A DNA stretch of 64,000 bases, from assembly GCA_045542115.1 (NCBI GenBank), contig JAZQKK010000033.1:488-64487 (forward strand). Reading direction: 5' to 3'. Within the stretch, counting starts at the first letter, position 1. The number at the start of each line of letters is the position of its first letter. The notes below the pieces were generated by a model. The model was given only the letters and a program-made list of their open reading frames with translations. It searched no databases and had not been told where the DNA came from. Below, one piece after another: positions 2 through 42,738 of the stretch. A program made the position numbers and the translations under genes. The stretch comes from Eubacteriales bacterium (GTDB taxonomy: Bacteria > Bacillota > Clostridia > Oscillospirales > UBA644).

Positions 2-949
2 GCAGGCACAGAGCTTAAGATCACGCATACCTATCGTAATTCACAAGAGCTTATTGATATTGCAGGTGGCTTTGTACAAAAGAATTCCGCACAGATAAGA
101 AAGCAACTGATCTCTCCTAAACACCTGGAGAATCCTGTTGTAATTGAGGCATTCGATGATAGTGTGAAACCGATGAAAGCGTTGGCTGAAAAGGTAGAGG
201 AAATCATCGGAAAGATTATTGCCGAATATGGTGAGAAGAACTCTATTCTGCTGATAGGGCGCTATAATTACGATATGTACAAGCTCTATAAGGCTGGCGC
301 GTTTACGGAGCTTCCTAATAATCGTGTGAAGTCTGAGAAGTATCCAAATGCTGATATTACATTCATGACAGCGCACAGTTCCAAAGGCTTGGGATATGAC
401 AATGTAATTCTCATTAATATGTTCGAAGGGAAGTTTGGATTCCCGTGCCAGATTGAGGATGATCCCATTATAAAGCTCGTTATGCACGAGGACAGAAGTA
501 TGCCATTCGCAGAAGAAAGAAGACTTTTCTACGTTGCGATGACAAGAACAAAGAATCGTGTTTATATCGCAACACCTAAGCATAAGCCTTCCAGGTTCCT
601 TGTAGAGCTCATTAAGGATTATAATTTACCGCACGACGAGGGAATCAATATGCATGTGGTTGACCTTTTCAATCTGCGATGCCCGATTTGCGGATTCCCT
701 TTGAAATATGAGTTCAACAAAAACTACGGGCTGAATCTTTGGATATGTACAAATGATTCGGAGGTCTGTGATTTTATGACCAACGATAAAGTGCATAAGC
801 ATGATATATTCAAATGTCCTAAGTGCTCTGACGGATATATGATCGTTAAAATGAATCCCAAAAATGGTAATGTGTTTTATGGTTGTACCAATTATTTTAG
901 CGAAAACAAGTGTACAAATATGATCACACTTCCTTCAGATGCCAAATGA
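2..949 (+). CDS. UvrD/HelD(helicase IV)-like SF1 helicase, C-terminal part with topoisomerase-type zinc ribbons (5' truncated by window)
   Basis: Frame open from base 2 (TYRNSQELI motif IV); MTAHSSKGLGYD and EERRLFYVAMTR motifs; C-terminal CPxC..C zinc ribbons. Confidence 0.85.
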   Translation, partial: AGTELKITHTYRNSQELIDIAGGFVQKNSAQIRKQLISPKHLENPVVIEAFDDSVKPMKALAEKVEEIIGKIIAEYGEKNSILLIGRYNYDMYKLYKAGAFTELPNNRVKSEKYPNADITFMTAHSSKGLGYDNVILINMFEGKFGFPCQIEDDPIIKLVMHEDRSMPFAEERRLFYVAMTRTKNRVYIATPKHKPSRFLVELIKDYNLPHDEGINMHVVDLFNLRCPICGFPLKYEFNKNYGLNLWICTNDSEVCDFMTNDKVHKHDIFKCPKCSDGYMIVKMNPKNGNVFYGCTNYFSENKCTNMITLPSDAK

Positions 950-1154
950 AAAAATATATTCTCTCTGGACTTATCCCTCCTTCTATGATATTGTGTGTGC
1001 TACCAAGAAAAGGAGGCATACATATGACAGGTCAGAAACAAGTTAATAGCAAAAAACAAAACAGAGCGGTTCTGAATCGGGAATTCCCGAGGCGGAGCCG
1101 CTCTCTCATTATCGAGAAAGAAGGATCGAAATGTATAGAGACGGAGGTGCAGAA

Positions 1155-1439
1155 ATGACGACGCTTGAAAATTTATATTACGGGAACATCAATCCAAACG
1201 AGAGGTTTATCAAACGCGGATCGCGGATGGACAAGCTTGTGAAGCTAATCTGCAGAAACGAGGAGGAGCTTGCCTCTACTCTTACAGAAAAGCAGAAAGA
1301 AGTCTTTGAAAAGTTTAAAGACTGTCAGAGCGAGTTGAGCAGCATTGCAGAGCGAGAAGCGTTTGTCTCGGGGTTCGTTCTTGCGACACGAATTATGGTC
1401 GAAGTAATGGACGGGCTTGAAGCGGTTGAAGATATATAG
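1155..1439 (+). CDS. Small hypothetical protein (DUF6809-like)
   Basis: MTTLENLYYGNINP...AFVSGFVLATRIMVE pattern; GGAGG RBS before ATG 1155. Confidence 0.6.
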   Translation: MTTLENLYYGNINPNERFIKRGSRMDKLVKLICRNEEELASTLTEKQKEVFEKFKDCQSELSSIAEREAFVSGFVLATRIMVEVMDGLEAVEDI

Positions 1440-1471
1440 TCAATGCGGCTATAAGACAATTAAATTGCGAC

Positions 1472-1537
1472 ATTATTCCGAAACACACAAAATATTATTC
1501 CGATACACTTGATATTATTCCGATAATATGGTATAAT
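1472..1537 (+). promoter_or_regulatory. sigma-A promoter of fic overlapped by three ATTATTCCGA direct repeats
   Basis: TTGATA(1509-1514)-17-TATAAT(1532-1537); repeats at 1472, 1494, 1514. Confidence 0.7.
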
Positions 1538-1561
1538 ATGTTACGGAAGGAGTTGATTTGT

Positions 1562-2455
1562 GTGTTTATGACTGTAAAAGAGGCGGCTGCCAAGTGGGGT
1601 ATCTCCGATCGCCGCGTAAGAATTTTGTGTAGCGAGGGGAAGATCCCCGGTGCGTTTCAGCAAGGCCGTGGGTGGAAGATTCCCGAAAATGCCGCAAAGC
1701 CGTCAGATGGACGTTATAAGACATCCGCGTCGCTTTTGGAGATCATTGACCAAAAGAAAAAAGAATTGGATTCTCGCCGTCCGCTGACCGAAGGTGAGGT
1801 TAAACGACTAAACGAAGATTTTGCCATTGAATATACCTACAACTCCAATGCTATCGAAGGGAACACTCTAACGCTTAGGGAGACCGATATGGTCCTGCGT
1901 GGTTTGACTATTGATCAGAAGCCCCTGAAGGAGCACATGGAGGTGGTAGGACACAAAGAAGCCTTTGACTTTGTGCGTGAGCTTGTGCAGGAGAAAGCGC
2001 CTTTGTCGGAGCGCGTCATACAGCAAATCCATTTCCTTGTGTTAGCGGATCAGCGAGAGGATCGTGGTGTTTACCGCCGCGTGCCCGTTCGTATTATGGG
2101 CGCCCAACACGAACCGGTGCAGCCTTATATGATACAGCCCAGTATGGAGCAACTGATGATTCGCTATGCAGAGAGCACAGAGCATATCGTAACCAAGCTG
2201 GCTCGGTTCCACATTGAGTTTGAGGGGATCCACCCCTTTATCGACGGAAACGGTAGAACCGGTAGACTCTTGGTCAATCTGGAACTGATGAAGGCGGGTT
2301 ATCCACCTATCGACATCAAGTTCACCGATCGTAAGGCCTATTACGATGCCTTTGATGCCTATTACGTTAAAGGCAACCTTGCACCTATGGAAAAGCTGTT
2401 CGCGGGATATGTGAATGCGAGATTGGATCAGTATCTGAGTATGCTACAGGATTAA
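1562..2455 (+). CDS. Fic-domain protein with N-terminal excisionase-like HTH
   Basis: HPFIDGNGRTGR Fic motif, SNAIEGN inhibitory motif, N-terminal MTVKEAAAKWGISDRRVRILC; start probably GTG 1562 or ATG 1568. Confidence 0.9.
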   Translation: MFMTVKEAAAKWGISDRRVRILCSEGKIPGAFQQGRGWKIPENAAKPSDGRYKTSASLLEIIDQKKKELDSRRPLTEGEVKRLNEDFAIEYTYNSNAIEGNTLTLRETDMVLRGLTIDQKPLKEHMEVVGHKEAFDFVRELVQEKAPLSERVIQQIHFLVLADQREDRGVYRRVPVRIMGAQHEPVQPYMIQPSMEQLMIRYAESTEHIVTKLARFHIEFEGIHPFIDGNGRTGRLLVNLELMKAGYPPIDIKFTDRKAYYDAFDAYYVKGNLAPMEKLFAGYVNARLDQYLSMLQD

Positions 2456-2583
2456 AAAATACCGGATGGCTATGACAAGTCGTCCGGTATTGCTTTTTGT
2501 GGGTGAATAATAAGCAAATTTTACTCGATCCTCTATTTGAACATGTGCTTTTTGAGGCCTTTTTGTGCTCGGGTTTGTGCGAG

Positions 2584-2607
2584 TTCGAACCTGCGGCATC
2601 TTGTTCC
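2584..2607 (-). repeat. Partial copy of the tRNA-Pro anticodon-stem to T-loop segment (att-like scar)
   Basis: Minus strand GGAACAAGATGCCGCAGGTTCGAA matches intact tRNA 2793-2770 at 23/24. Confidence 0.8.
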
Positions 2608-2703
2608 TTTTGGGCGGCTTTGAGGCGGATTTTTGCCAAAAAATGCACTGGTCAAAATTGTGGTCAAAATCGGGGTAAAAATCAGAATTTGTGCACAGTA
2701 ACG

Positions 2704-2753
2704 AAAAATCGACCGATTTTTAAGGTTTTTAGCCTCGAAATCGGTCGATTTTT
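2704..2753 (-). terminator. Inverted repeat immediately downstream of tRNA-Pro
   Basis: AAAAATCGACCGATTT ... AAATCGGTCGATTTTT. Confidence 0.65.
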
Positions 2754-2828
2754 GGTCGGAGTGACAGGATTCGAACCTGCGGCATCTTGCTCCCAAAGCA
2801 AGCGCGCTACCAACTGCGCTACACCCCG
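2753..2828 (-). tRNA. tRNA-Pro(TGG)
   Basis: CGGGGTGTAGCGCAGTTGGTAGCGCG-CTTGC-TTTGGGA-GCAAG-ATGCCGCAGGTTCGAATCCTGTCACTCCGACCA; cloverleaf with encoded CCA. Confidence 0.97.
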
Positions 2829-2970
2829 AGGTATGAAATTGTGGTCAAAATAAGAGGGTTTACAGAACTGGTCAAAATTGTGGTCAAACGATACTTTTAG
2901 GAAATATAAAGTGCGAAAAGTCCAGTGTTTATGCGGGTTTTTGGGGATTGGGGTCTTGCGATATACTTAG

Positions 2971-3009
2971 CTCCCAAATGTCGCGCGCTACCAACTGCGC
3001 CACACCCCG
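2971..3009 (-). pseudogene. tRNA-Pro 5' half (copy nearest intact gene)
   Basis: CGGGGTGTGGCGCAGTTGGTAGCGCG-CGACA-TTTGGGAG, ends at anticodon loop. Confidence 0.9.
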
Positions 3010-3174
3010 ATGGTATGATATTTTGTTTAAAAAGCGATATTTTCTATAAGTGGTCAAATAGTTGGTCAAAATCAATTTTACAGTAATTTTTGAAAACGGT
3101 CAAGTCCCAAAAACCCAGTGTTTATGCGGGTTTGCGAGCACTCGAACTTCGGAGGTGTCGGGACCGACCACTTG

Positions 3175-3213
3175 TTCCCAAACCACCCGCGCTCCCAGCT
3201 GCGCCACACCCGG
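3175..3213 (-). pseudogene. tRNA-Pro 5' half (middle copy)
   Basis: CCGGGTGTGGCGCAGCTGGGAGCGCG-GGTGG-TTTGGGAA. Confidence 0.85.
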
Positions 3214-3372
3214 ATATCTATTCAATTTTTTCTCTTTCTGCGTGGAAGTGGGACAAACTGTGGTCAAACGCAAATTCCACGCCGTTTTGCGTTTTTATAA
3301 GGTGCCGAAAGTCCGCACTGTTAAAGGCTTTTCGGGACTTCCGTAAAATCTCGGCAATTCGTGCTGGGCACG

Positions 3373-3411
3373 CTCCCAAACCAGGCGCTCTACCAGGGGA
3401 GCTACACCTCA
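3373..3411 (-). pseudogene. tRNA-Pro 5' half (promoter-proximal copy)
   Basis: TGAGGTGTAGCTCCCCTGGTAGAGCG-CCTGG-TTTGGGAG. Confidence 0.8.
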
Positions 3412-3426
3412 AAAGAATCTTTGTGT

Positions 3427-3455
3427 ATTATATCAAATTTCAATGAATTTGTCAA
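3427..3455 (-). promoter_or_regulatory. Consensus sigma-A promoter firing into the tRNA-half array
   Basis: Minus strand TTGACA(3455-3450)-17-TATAAT(3432-3427), 15 bp upstream of first tRNA half. Confidence 0.85.
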
Positions 3456-3493
3456 GGGGATTGCATCGGAGAAATTTTCTCCGATGCAAATTG

Positions 3494-4327
3494 TTATTCT
3501 TCTGTTTTTTTGTAAAGCAACACGGAAAAAGCTGCCGTGGTAGTTAATTCTTTCACAGAATCTAATTTTTGAATGTCTGTGGGGGACGTTTTACGGGCAT
3601 ATGGAGTCATTGAAAACAGGTCTTTAACCGTCTGTGTATCGGTTAGGCACAACGGATAACGCAGTTTTGTATCGGAAACGAGTGTAAAACCGTCATATAT
3701 GGGAATAACCACTTCATTTTCATAAACTGAATCATAAACGGCAGTTTTTAACTCCAAAAGATGGTCTTCCAACGGAATTGCCTTCACGTAAACTGCTCCG
3801 GGTTTAAGTATTCGTAAAAATTCTTCTGCACAGTCCGGGGCAAAAACATTCACAACAACATCTGCCCATTGGTCGGGGAGCGGTAGATGATACAAGCTTG
3901 CAACAGCAAATTCCCCGCCGAAATTTCGCTTTGCAGCCGCATTTAAGGCGTCTTTGGAAATGTCTACACCGGCACTCTGCACCTCGTGCCCGGCTTCTTC
4001 CAATTTTTGATGGATTTCTTGCGTGTACCATCCTTCTCCGCATCCGGCATCAAACAGATTTACGGATTTCGAAAGAAAGGGAACGGCAACGTCGTAAATC
4101 GTTTCCATTAACGGTTTGTAATATCCGGCAGAAAGAAAGGCTGTTCGGGAACGAACCATCGCTCGGTCATCGCCGTGTAAGGTTCCTTGTTGGGACATTA
4201 AAAGGTTTACGTAGCCGCTTTTTGCATAATCATAACAATGTCCTTTGGAACAGTGCAAGGTCTTCCCTATTTTTTCCAACGGTTCACTACAAATAGGACA
4301 ACGAAAAGCACTGATGTTATTCTTCAC
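3494..4327 (-). CDS. rlmA: 23S rRNA m1G745/748 methyltransferase (RlmA family)
   Basis: N-terminal CPIC..C..H zinc finger, GYVNLL, DAGCGEG, LFSMTPY. Confidence 0.8.
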   Translation of the reverse strand: MKNNISAFRCPICSEPLEKIGKTLHCSKGHCYDYAKSGYVNLLMSQQGTLHGDDRAMVRSRTAFLSAGYYKPLMETIYDVAVPFLSKSVNLFDAGCGEGWYTQEIHQKLEEAGHEVQSAGVDISKDALNAAAKRNFGGEFAVASLYHLPLPDQWADVVVNVFAPDCAEEFLRILKPGAVYVKAIPLEDHLLELKTAVYDSVYENEVVIPIYDGFTLVSDTKLRYPLCLTDTQTVKDLFSMTPYARKTSPTDIQKLDSVKELTTTAAFSVLLYKKTEE

Positions 4328-4886
4328 TGTTATTCTCCTGTAAAACAATCGGCTCTTCCCCTTCTCTAAACAACACCGGGGTCGTGTTCGGTAAACAATG
4401 TTTGCTGAGATTTTCGCCGTTTTCTATACCATAGATAGCACCGTACAAAGCACCGGAAAAACCTCCGTGGGATACGACTAAGATTCTTCCATCCGGATGC
4501 TTTTCTTTTACCTCAGAATAGAAGTCCTTTGCTCGGGCAATAACATCCTCTATTATTTCCATTCCGTCTACCCGTTCCCGTCCCAGAACCCACCAATTGC
4601 GAAAGAAATCCTCCGGAAACTGTCCGCCTTCAAAGGGTCCAAAGCACCATTCCGTCAATCGGTCATCCAATATAGGAATAGCGCCGGGAAGAGCGTATTC
4701 CAACGTTTGACGCGTACGGAGTAAGGGGGAGCAGTAAATCGCATCAAAGGTATACTTTTGCAGAATTTTTCCTACCCTTTTCGCATCACTAATTCCAGCT
4801 TCATTCAACGGAACATCACTTTGTCCTTGAAGGCGACGTTCCACATTCCACGGGGTCAGACCGTGACGGAGATAAATCAGTTCCAT
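4317..4886 (-). CDS. Histidine phosphatase (phosphoglycerate mutase family)
   Basis: RHGLT, SPLLRT, VSHGG motifs. Confidence 0.9.
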   Translation of the reverse strand: MELIYLRHGLTPWNVERRLQGQSDVPLNEAGISDAKRVGKILQKYTFDAIYCSPLLRTRQTLEYALPGAIPILDDRLTEWCFGPFEGGQFPEDFFRNWWVLGRERVDGMEIIEDVIARAKDFYSEVKEKHPDGRILVVSHGGFSGALYGAIYGIENGENLSKHCLPNTTPVLFREGEEPIVLQENNSEE

Positions 4887-30740: not shown

Positions 30741-31379
30741 ATGTTTTGCGAGAAGAAATTTATTTCTAAAAAGCATTTAGGTGAACACTTAAATTTTTTG
30801 GAATATAATCCGTTTGATGATAAAAGCAAAAAACCATTGCTTATTTACATACATGGCGCTGGCAGTCGTGGTGATACTCTTTCAAAAATGGCTAATGTAG
30901 GACCTATAAAAGAGTTAAATGATGGCAGAAATATTGATGCGATAATCATTGCACCACAATGTCATAGCGATACATGGTTCGATTTGTTTTCTGTTTTAGC
31001 GGAATTTATAGAAGATTATAAAATCAGAGAAAACGTTGATGAAAGCAGAGTGTATATTACGGGTGTAAGTATGGGAGCCTACGCTACATGGCAAATGTGT
31101 ATATCTCATCCTGATTGGTTTGCTGCTGCGGTACCAGTTTGCGGTGGTGGAATGTATTGGAATGCTGCTCGACTCAAATATTTGCCAATATGGGCTTTTC
31201 ACGGTGCCTTAGATAATGTTGTATTTGCTGAAGAAAGCGTTGAAATGGTTTCCGCAATTAACAGCAATGGTGGAAATGCAAAACTAACAATTTTTTCTCA
31301 TGATAGTCATAATTCGTGGGATAATACATTTAGTAACGATGAGTTGTGGCAATGGTTGTTTGAACAAAAAAGGAGATAA
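30741..31379 (+). CDS. Alpha/beta hydrolase (esterase/peptidase-like)
   Basis: IHGAG, GVSMG nucleophile, FHGALD, HNSW. Confidence 0.85.
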   Translation: MFCEKKFISKKHLGEHLNFLEYNPFDDKSKKPLLIYIHGAGSRGDTLSKMANVGPIKELNDGRNIDAIIIAPQCHSDTWFDLFSVLAEFIEDYKIRENVDESRVYITGVSMGAYATWQMCISHPDWFAAAVPVCGGGMYWNAARLKYLPIWAFHGALDNVVFAEESVEMVSAINSNGGNAKLTIFSHDSHNSWDNTFSNDELWQWLFEQKRR

Positions 31380-42583: not shown

Positions 42584-42660
42584 GGCGGAATAGCTCAGTT
42601 GGCTAGAGCATACGGTTCATACCCGTACGGTCGCCGGTTCAAATCCAGCTTCCGCTACCA
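42584..42660 (+). tRNA. tRNA-Met(CAT), elongator type
   Basis: GGCGGAATAGCTCAG...TACGG-TTCATAC-CCGTA...CCGCTACCA. Confidence 0.93.
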
Positions 42661-42663
42661 AAC

Positions 42664-42738
42664 GGCCCGTTGGTCAAGTGGTTAAGACACGGCCCTTTCA
42701 CGGCTGTAACAGGAGTTCGACTCTCCTACGGGTCACCA
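42664..42738 (+). tRNA. tRNA-Glu(TTC)
   Basis: GGCCCGTTGGTCAAG...CGGCC-CTTTCAC-GGCTG...GGGTCACCA. Confidence 0.96.

Follow-up and report, generated by a model that had tools for sequence, protein, structure and literature searches.

The DNA analysed here, hereafter the window, is a stretch of 64,000 nucleotides that starts at base 488 of contig C33 (JAZQKK010000033.1) of a 37-contig, 1.93-Mb metagenome bin of an Eubacteriales bacterium (GenBank assembly GCA_045542115.1). On its minus strand, three different 5' halves of tRNA-Pro genes, each cut off at the anticodon loop, are lined up between a promoter and the intact tRNA-Pro(UGG) gene. We read this array, with a probability of roughly 0.8, as a stack of left attachment junctions (attL) produced by the serial, site-specific integration of elements of one family into the anticodon loop of tRNA-Pro(UGG). 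According to this reading, the attachment site of each element would consist of a P arm, the 7-nt core TTTGGGA and a P' arm, the latter being a spacer of 140-200 bp with paired TTTGACCAC-type sites that is followed by a complete tRNA-Pro(UGG) gene and then by the cargo. Integration would cut the resident gene without rebuilding it, leaving the resident 5' half at the promoter, upstream of the incoming tRNA, and moving the resident 3' half to the far end of the element. Because the same loop in the incoming tRNA offers a new target, the next element could split that tRNA in turn and add one more 5' half to the stack, and the halves would pile up by the promoter only because the incoming tRNA lies 140-200 bp from the crossover core. 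For the window this would make the first half (h1) the native one, the second and third (h2 and h3) the halves of tRNAs brought by elements 1 and 2, and the intact gene that of element 3; the first spacer (B1) with h2 would be the left end of the first element, B2 with h3 that of the second, and B3 with the intact tRNA that of the third, whose cargo would run off the contig.

The anatomy of the array (Table 1) is evident from the window itself. A 41-nt repeat occurs in four copies (3412-3372, 3214-3174, 3010-2970 and 2829-2789) whose identity to the copy in the intact gene is 78, 80, 88 and 100% in array order, and the halves and the intact gene start 198, 204 and 181 bp apart. A single tRNA-Pro(tgg) is called in the array by ARAGORN and Rfam (2753-2828, 70.6 bits), with both stems pairing and no hybrid character; neither program recognises the halves as tRNA, and within the array Rfam gives no other family match at threshold. 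Each half retains the acceptor strand, the D arm, one anticodon-stem strand and the loop TTTGGGA, and h1 has lost its first base to mutation. The tRNA likeness of every half ends after TTTGGGAGC (in h2, TTTGGGAAC), so that it is gone two bases past the loop, and non-tRNA sequence follows each core. The 5' strands of the anticodon stems are CCTGG, GGTGG and CGACA in h1 to h3 versus CTTGC in the intact gene, and the stems of the orphans do not pair with the 3' strand of that gene. The units of 181-204 bp contain no gene, and a consensus scan predicted no minus-strand terminator-like site inside the array. Elsewhere in the assembly there is no second copy of the gene, which is one of 46 tRNAs. 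An initial annotation, made without database searches, had described the promoter, the three halves, the intact gene and the three periods, and this description proved exact; it was also right that the halves stop at the loop, that none of their stem strands fits the intact 3' strand, and that they are different alleles and no local duplications, each being found as a full gene elsewhere.

Each spacer holds paired TTTGACCAC-type motifs, spaced 11-12 nt, as well as further related blocks, none of which the initial annotation had recorded. The TTTGACCAC-type 20-mer has three matches in the window versus 0.01 expected and none elsewhere in the 1.93-Mb assembly, and the repeats of the array are therefore not a product of chance. 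The window's spacers are mutually 58-65% alike (shuffled sequences: mean 57, maximum 63), whereas B1 shares 82-89% identity with the spacer that separates first half from intact tRNA in two congeners (G011 and G006; such handles are our own labels for related genomes, records, contigs and loci), and hence the units are not local copies of one another. A motif pair lies 52-60 nt ahead of the tRNA in 7/7 spacers measured, and a TTGACCAC-type motif roughly 130-145 nt ahead of the core in six of six right-end junctions (G009, G070, G076, G380, G360 and G291). Judged by these positions, the motif pairs are probably integrase arm sites on both arms of the attachment site; they could also act as -35 boxes. 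Spacer variants were seen in relatives. A GC-rich hairpin insert of ~45-60 nt (GGCGGGGAGCCCCCGC...) stands just past the core in L008, L013, L215, L263 and G380:C30; some spacers of our type B have it and others, the window's among them, lack it. A spacer type C was found in G073 (L046, L165 and L180), L257, L299, L258 and L301. In G073 it forms 3-4 identical copies of a half plus ~165 nt with a 204-bp period, ending in TTTGGGC, and in L258 and L301 the tRNA likeness already ends in the D loop; type C probably represents another element family or local duplication.

A search with the 901-bp array against 60 related genomes and the window's own assembly placed the array at a locus that the genus shares. 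Four genomes of the same genus (G011, G006, G001 and G009) have the promoter, the first half and the first spacer and then an intact tRNA-Pro, which sits where the window has its second half; between h1 and the first half of G009 the identity is 95.7%. In G005 there are at least two halves, and the contig breaks off within a spacer that is identical to the last part of B3 and stands behind a different orphan allele. The rlmA-like flank is kept in G011, G006, G005 and G003, and together with the layouts this indicates one locus at which the number of halves differs, namely one in the four congeners, at least two in G005 and three in the window; the comparison of unit numbers across strains that the initial annotation had proposed thus shows variation among relatives. 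The alleles of the orphans recur as whole genes: the h2 allele (GGTGG) is intact at the h2 position in G011, G006 and G001, and the h3 allele (CGACA) is intact in G009, G073 and G075. The window's intact tRNA is 100% identical to a gene of G012 and 99% identical to one of G026, both of another genus, and the allele of G026 adjoins tRNA-Ala without a spacer and looks native. An uninvaded locus (rlmA, promoter and native tRNA) was not found in the genus. When five congeners were scanned for native-type 3' halves, the only matches were G009's intact gene and a tRNA unrelated to the array. Three of the four congener contigs examined break off 1.5-3.4 kb past the tRNA, as mobile DNA present in repeats would lead one to expect. 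In G003 (L028, contig C80, 1360-1560) the promoter runs straight into the final ~40 nt of a type-B spacer, behind which stands an intact tRNA-Pro of the CGAAG allele; the orphan half and the bulk of the spacer have been lost by deletion, so deletions do occur at the locus.

The elements themselves are preserved in relatives, with both orphan halves. On an 88-kb contig of G009, the promoter, a CCTGG 5' half, TTTGGGA, a spacer and an intact CGACA tRNA are followed 29.7 kb on by a non-tRNA flank, TTTGGGA, a CCAGG 3' half and then the host E1 dehydrogenase gene. Joined in silico, the two orphan halves give an ARAGORN tRNA-Pro(tgg), and this together with the ends of the halves in the anticodon loop places attB inside the tRNA gene; joining the orphan 5' half to the 3' half of the resident gene puts the anticodon in the wrong place, and the opposite hybrid yields no tRNA. 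The 29.7-kb island encodes a zinc-ribbon protein, HTH_17, Fic, two tandem tyrosine integrases, IS110, an S24 repressor, DUF6809, AbiH, methylases, a UvrD/PD-(D/E)XK helicase and an NgoFVII-type restriction system. It has split the native gene in the loop without mending it and has brought a whole tRNA-Pro ~200 bp past the core. The same arrangement is found in the IMG/VR record G070, in which two halves and an intact tRNA are followed by 19.3 kb with two integrases, an arm made of non-tRNA flank, TTTGGGA and an orphan 3' half; further orphan 3' halves occur in G360 and G291. In G380, one contig carries a decayed half, a GGTGG 5' half (the allele of h2) and an intact gene of the same allele, and a second contig (C16) carries an arm, TTTGGGA, the matching GGTGG-allele 3' half and the old terminator of that gene, from which it follows that an element-borne tRNA has itself been split. 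At the loci examined the shared core is TTTGGGA, plus GC in some cases, the intact tRNA-Pro(tgg) stands 140-200 bp past it, and no functional tRNA is rebuilt at the junctions. These layouts contradict the main inference of the initial annotation, that integration displaced the 5' part only, since it is the complete gene that is exchanged, with both of its halves orphaned and the 3' halves lying at the far ends in relatives; its suggestion of nested elements, each bringing a replacement tRNA that the next one splits, proved largely right for the related genomes (G009, G380 and the integrase survey below). The Fic, HTH_17, DUF6809 and UvrD helicase families are common to the G009 island and to the genes behind the window's tRNA, which by their families are typical island cargo.

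The link to an integrase was followed with the tRNA-proximal integrase of G009 as the query. It matched 409 stretches in the species collection, of which the best 80 were analysed, and 63 of these 80 loci extended at least 5 kb beyond the integrase gene. An intact tRNA-Pro(UGG) on the opposite strand was present in 43/63 (median distance to the integrase end 1866 bp); one or more orphan 5' halves were counted in 40/63 and two or more in 5/63. Nine of 11 seemingly orphan-less loci have a decayed, truncated or missed half followed by TTTGGGAGCGTG and a spacer. Units with cargo or an integrase, which the initial annotation had proposed to look for, thus exist in relatives, both in the 43 loci with a tRNA and in the G009 island. 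The integrases behind the tRNA in relatives belong to PF00589, and tandem integrases lie 1-7 kb past the tRNA. Such tandem tyrosine integrases measure ~390-410 aa and ~405-495 aa in L203:14337-16965, L178:15823-18496 and L086:6040-8683; tblastn identity to the second copy is ~35%. By their record titles the carriers are uncultured Eubacteriales, Oscillospiraceae, Acutalibacteraceae and other Clostridia, many from the ruminant gut. The 3' pattern of the GGTGG allele was found in 45/401 genomes of the order (26/177 genera), and 22 of the 30 GGTGG-pattern loci returned have no orphan; the GGTGG stem is therefore also native in some families. Among 101 distinct tRNA-Pro(UGG) loci, not counting the window, 42 have no orphan, 50 have one, seven have two, one (L055) has three halves and one has four identical tandem copies, which puts the window's stack of three alleles at the upper end of this sample. 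The idea that stem alleles shield a locus from re-invasion was weakened, because pairs of one and the same allele, in which a GGTGG orphan precedes a GGTGG gene, occur often.

Several observations weigh against the reading as serial, nested integration. In the window's assembly, strict and relaxed regular-expression scans found no orphan 3' half; no integrase of the element family was found, the best match being 32% identical and at another contig's end; and no second copy of the arm motif or other core junction was found. An ortholog of the E1 dehydrogenase gene that flanks the far end of the G009 island lies on contig C35 of this assembly, with no tRNA piece beside it. The putative link between array and element accordingly comes from the homology of spacers, alleles and cargo families with relatives. 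In G070 the first orphan 3' half downstream belongs to the native type (CCAAG), where the innermost 5' half would call for GCAAG, so strict nesting fails there, and in L257, with a two-half array, no 3' half occurs in the 56 kb of contig downstream. No contig among the loci examined combined two or more 5' halves with two or more 3' halves in the opposite order. All 17 informative phage-linked contigs show a non-tRNA flank that runs through the TTTGGGA core into a spacer, and cores therefore also exist outside tRNA halves. The survey frequencies, too, are not unbiased, since loci were picked by motif or integrase, and halves were counted with our own regular expressions, which both miss and over-call some. 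With no 3' half or integrase found and the contig ending 3.2 kb past the tRNA (487 bp left of the window), nesting in the window's genome is an inference, and so are the stepwise events in this lineage and element bodies that would still lie beyond the contig end.

The closest competitor shares this origin and differs in what is left: the units would now be bare scars, the bodies of elements 1 and 2 having been lost and only the last element lying behind the tRNA. We regard this as a real possibility at clearly less than even odds. Scars could arise when an internal tRNA core recombines with the right-end core, or when nested elements that are related to each other undergo homologous recombination. 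Hybrid tRNA-Pro genes with mixed alleles and mismatched anticodon stems were seen at G076 30772-31010 (L192) and L009 1734-1809. In G076 a P arm, core and spacer precede a CCGCA 5' half, a core and the 3' half of another allele, with no cargo between the cores, and G012 has a hybrid tRNA similar to that of G076. These hybrids imply recombination at cores inside tRNAs and hence a route to cargo-less scars. Scars would also fit the expected inner 3' halves that are missing in G070, the want of any 3' half in the window's assembly and the promoter-spacer fusion of G003. The window's intact tRNA, however, is no hybrid, as both of its stems pair, and an assembly that reaches only 3.2 kb past the tRNA cannot tell whether bodies are absent; three of the four congener contigs likewise end at 1.5-3.4 kb. 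The initial annotation had offered cargo-less, attachment-site-only units as one of two explanations; as a general mechanism this does not hold, and as scars such units are possible, given the hybrids of G076 and G012.

It is rather unlikely, though conceivable, that the stack or part of it (h2, B2, h3, B3 and the tRNA) arrived as one piece in the arm of a single element, in which case its order would be no record of the lineage. This alternative draws on phage-linked contigs. Those with the lysis genes of the phage concerned are L086, L118, L055, L044, L125, L133 and L166-L177 (IMG/VR), and the whole records are G070, G075 and G076. Past the holin gene come a non-tRNA flank, TTTGGGA, a type-A spacer that bears a TGTTATAAT promoter of its own, a GGTGG half and then a spacer of type B, and the same sub-array stands beside the holin gene in all 17 informative contigs, with varying ends; multi-half arrays occur in the IMG/VR contigs L055 and L118. 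The run h2-B2-h3 recurs in four sequencing runs with 0-3 differences and none of these covers the host flank at 3428-3700, which by itself is no evidence for a mobile piece. Arrival in one piece is opposed by the intermediate of h1, B1 and an intact GGTGG tRNA at the rlmA-flanked locus of G011 and G006, from which at least the first step was separate. At its other end in G075 the phage adjoins a native, intact tRNA-Pro; this junction lacks a core, and the 16.5 kb contain no integrase. The phage-linked array may represent either a secondary attachment site within a phage that is defective or an island lodged in a phage genome. The window's 21-mer arm motif had no exact match in the viral contigs scanned, and the right-end arm of the G070 island matched only 3 viral contigs, a number too small for comparing target alleles. 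Read as serial integration, the array could serve as the chronological record of invasions that the initial annotation saw in it; this is plausible, and the mismatched 3' half of G070 and the arrays inside phage-linked contigs leave it without assurance.

A selected leader, in which the long transcript or RNAs resembling tRNA halves would be functional, is very improbable. The perfect promoter, the lack of a predicted minus-strand terminator inside the array and the conservation of the first half and spacer across the genus (78-89% identity) would suit it, but the number and alleles of the halves differ between congeners, h1 lacks its first base, no Rfam family matches and the half is lost in G003. 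A T-box or other leader RNA was likewise set aside, with no Rfam match at any family threshold, as were integron-like cassettes, since the units show no attC-like structure and hold no gene.

Still less probable are classical islands that lay upstream, restored the gene by its 5' portion, left displaced 5' fragments and were deleted later. Islands with 5' fragments exist (159/3919 in Islander, PMC4383910), but here a conserved host gene abuts the promoter and first half, the element lies downstream of the intact tRNA with the 3' half at its far end in G009 and G070, the sequence past each core is not tRNA, and the anticodon stems of neighbouring alleles do not pair; the G009/G070 layout and the non-tRNA sequence past the cores contradict this explanation. 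Equally hard to sustain is local tandem duplication or unequal crossing-over of the tRNA 5' region. It does take place with another spacer type, in the identical half-plus-spacer copies of G073 with their 204-bp period, but in the window it is contradicted by three different alleles, each a full gene elsewhere, and by spacers whose likeness is near the shuffled level.

Least credible of all is an assembly artefact. The bin has 37 contigs, the halves are repeats of the kind that break k-mer graphs, and no contig in Logan spans the whole array, leaving ambiguous joints between halves; yet the unit junctions recur in independent data and the architecture recurs at other loci. The check used assembled contigs of sequencing runs, with at most 0.31 of the sampled words per run and 3428-3700 uncovered. 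The junctions from the start of h3 through spacer 2 to the loop of h2 are present in Logan contigs of four runs from four studies with 0-3 differences (spans 3004-3201, 2999-3192, 3016-3174 and 3035-3191), other pieces cover 2855-2978 and 2773-2978, and parts of spacers 1 and 3 are confirmed as well. Because the unit junctions recur in four independent runs, the array is not a private misassembly.

The promoter is preceded by host genes, namely the rlmA-like methyltransferase, a histidine phosphatase and ATP-binding cassette (ABC) transporters. Two related stretches on the minus strand, 2570-2682 and 3120-3173, resemble a decayed tRNA-Pro 3' half (GGAACAAG ... GTTCGA ... AAACCCG); one stands at the start of B2 and the other, a relic, behind the intact gene after a motif pair. 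The 24-nt piece of the relic corresponds to the anticodon-to-T-loop part of the tRNA at 96% identity and lies downstream of the intact gene; it too is absent from the initial annotation. From their sequence, the two stretches may be remains of an older attachment site of the 3'-restoring kind. The relic and the stretch behind the tRNA (2300-2752) had no match in any locus compared. Elsewhere in the window, tRNA-Met(cat) and tRNA-Glu(ttc) stand 3 nt apart at 42584-42738 on the plus strand, with nothing unusual about them.

Table 1. Features of the tRNA-Pro(UGG) array and its surroundings, in the direction of the array; element assignments follow the reading as serial integration and are putative.
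Feature	Position in window	Strand	Remarks
rlmA-like methyltransferase	3494..4348	-	Host flank at the chromosomal side of the first junction
Sigma-70-type promoter, TTGACA-17-TATAAT	3427..3455	-	12/12 matches, TG ahead of -10; taken as that of the native, chromosomal tRNA-Pro locus
h1, orphan 5' half (positions 1-40)	3372..3411	-	Putatively native tRNA-Pro(UGG); CCTGG stem strand; loop TTTGGGA 3380-3374
Spacer B1	3214..3371	-	Putative P' arm of element 1; paired motif TTTGACCACAGTTTGTCCCAC at 3268-3247
h2, orphan 5' half	3174..3213	-	Putatively of tRNA-Pro from element 1; GGTGG allele; loop 3182-3176
Spacer B2	3010..3173	-	Putative P' arm of element 2; motifs 3070-3049; promoter-like site 3103-3075; decayed 3'-half-like start
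h3, orphan 5' half	2970..3009	-	Putatively of tRNA-Pro from element 2; CGACA allele; loop 2978-2972
Spacer B3	2829..2969	-	Putative P' arm of element 3; motifs 2888-2867 and 2851-2836; promoter-like site 2875-2847
Intact tRNA-Pro(UGG)	2753..2828	-	CTTGC/GCAAG allele; read as brought by element 3
Terminator-like hairpin (inverted repeat) behind tRNA	2704..2752	-	Read from the sequence; missed by the consensus scan, loop too long
Relic	2570..2682	-	Paired TTTGACCAC motif 2682-2647, degenerate core, 24-nt tRNA copy 2607-2584
Cargo of putative innermost element	2..2455	+	Four open reading frames; cut by contig end
HTH_17-Fic	1538-2455	+	
DUF6809	1131-1439	+	48% identical to DUF6809 of the G009 island
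Open reading frame	910-1158	+	
UvrD_C/zinc-ribbon open reading frame	2-949	+	End of a UvrD-type helicase

Accretion of integrative elements at one tRNA gene is familiar, and classical islands and prophages that restore their tRNA gene are said to have been treated by Williams in 2002. Classical islands have in common with the array the tyrosine integrases, displaced tRNA fragments at the ends and a crossover that is known to fall in the anticodon loop as well; they differ in that they restore the gene and leave a fragment matching the intact one, whereas here nothing is restored and the orphans are of other alleles. The Islander collection counts 3760 islands with 3' and 159 with 5' fragments, 2083 'anticodon centered' sites and 125 tandems of two or more islands, and rejects candidates below 2 kb (PMC4383910). 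The 5' orphan here lies less than 2 kb from the intact gene and would be rejected by that length filter. Tandem island arrays resemble the present one in the reuse of one tRNA gene by related elements and in rows of fragments, but they stand side by side with 3' fragments whole islands apart, as in G081:C6, whereas here the arrangement is nested with 5' fragments ~200 bp apart; the window's units of 181-204 bp hold neither a gene nor an island body as side-by-side tandems would. At L303 (G081:C6, 1-530), in the same group of genomes, we observed a classical row of 3' fragments behind tRNA-Pro(GGG), of ~35 and 16 nt and roughly 220 bp apart.

By analogy, the mechanism is known in kind as tRNA-dependent lysogeny, described for the actinobacteriophages Fionnbharth, LeBron, Gaia and others (Guerrero-Bustamante and Hatfull, 2024; PMC10865867). 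As set out in that article, a tyrosine integrase acts on an 8-17-bp core in a tRNA gene that is not rebuilt, a cognate phage tRNA is needed for viable lysogens, and the same mechanism is suspected for the Lactobacillus johnsonii prophage Lj965. The array agrees with it in the tyrosine integrase (here in relatives), in an attB inside a tRNA gene that is not rebuilt, in a complete tRNA of the same anticodon on the element and in a single-copy host tRNA. The core is 7-9 bp here, compared with the 8-17 bp given there. In the actinobacteriophages the requirement for the tRNA was established by experiment, according to the same article; here, where the gene is single-copy in the assembly, such a requirement is putative. 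The present hosts, unlike those of the actinobacteriophages, are gut Clostridia, and most carriers look like defence or cargo islands; furthermore, the replacement tRNA lies in the arm 140-200 bp from the core, there are two tandem integrase genes, and the replacement tRNA is itself targeted again so that stacks of 5' halves form, a stacking that the available text of PMC10865867 does not mention. In the literature searched, mostly listings and abstracts, we found no description of rows of 5' halves arising from nested replacement. What is new is the scale in gut Clostridia, the replacement gene within the arm, the tandem integrases and the three-deep stack.

These findings extend tRNA-dependent integration from a few actinobacteriophages to a large island- and phage-linked family in Clostridia of the animal and human gut, in which the replacement gene is targeted again, so that elements are nested and a row of dead 5' halves is kept in the chromosome. 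Finders that need a fragment matching the intact tRNA at more than 2 kb would miss these elements, and pipelines for tRNA annotation will be confronted with tRNA-Pro genes that are orphaned or hybrid. The 7-bp core, being common to all tRNA-Pro(UGG) genes, could make the integrases broadly usable tools. In a wider and quite tentative picture, which we think doubtful as a whole, the tRNA-Pro(UGG) locus would be a self-renewing docking site whose sole gene is always hostage to the newest element; leftover halves and cores would act as extra landing pads and recombination points that give rise to cargo-less scars, hybrid tRNAs and array-bearing phages, the universal TTTGGGA loop would let the family cross at least 14 bacterial families together with its tRNA alleles, and the stack would be both a partial history of invasion and an active platform for recombination. 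For the organism itself, the finding means that the host's single essential tRNA-Pro(UGG) may be foreign in origin.

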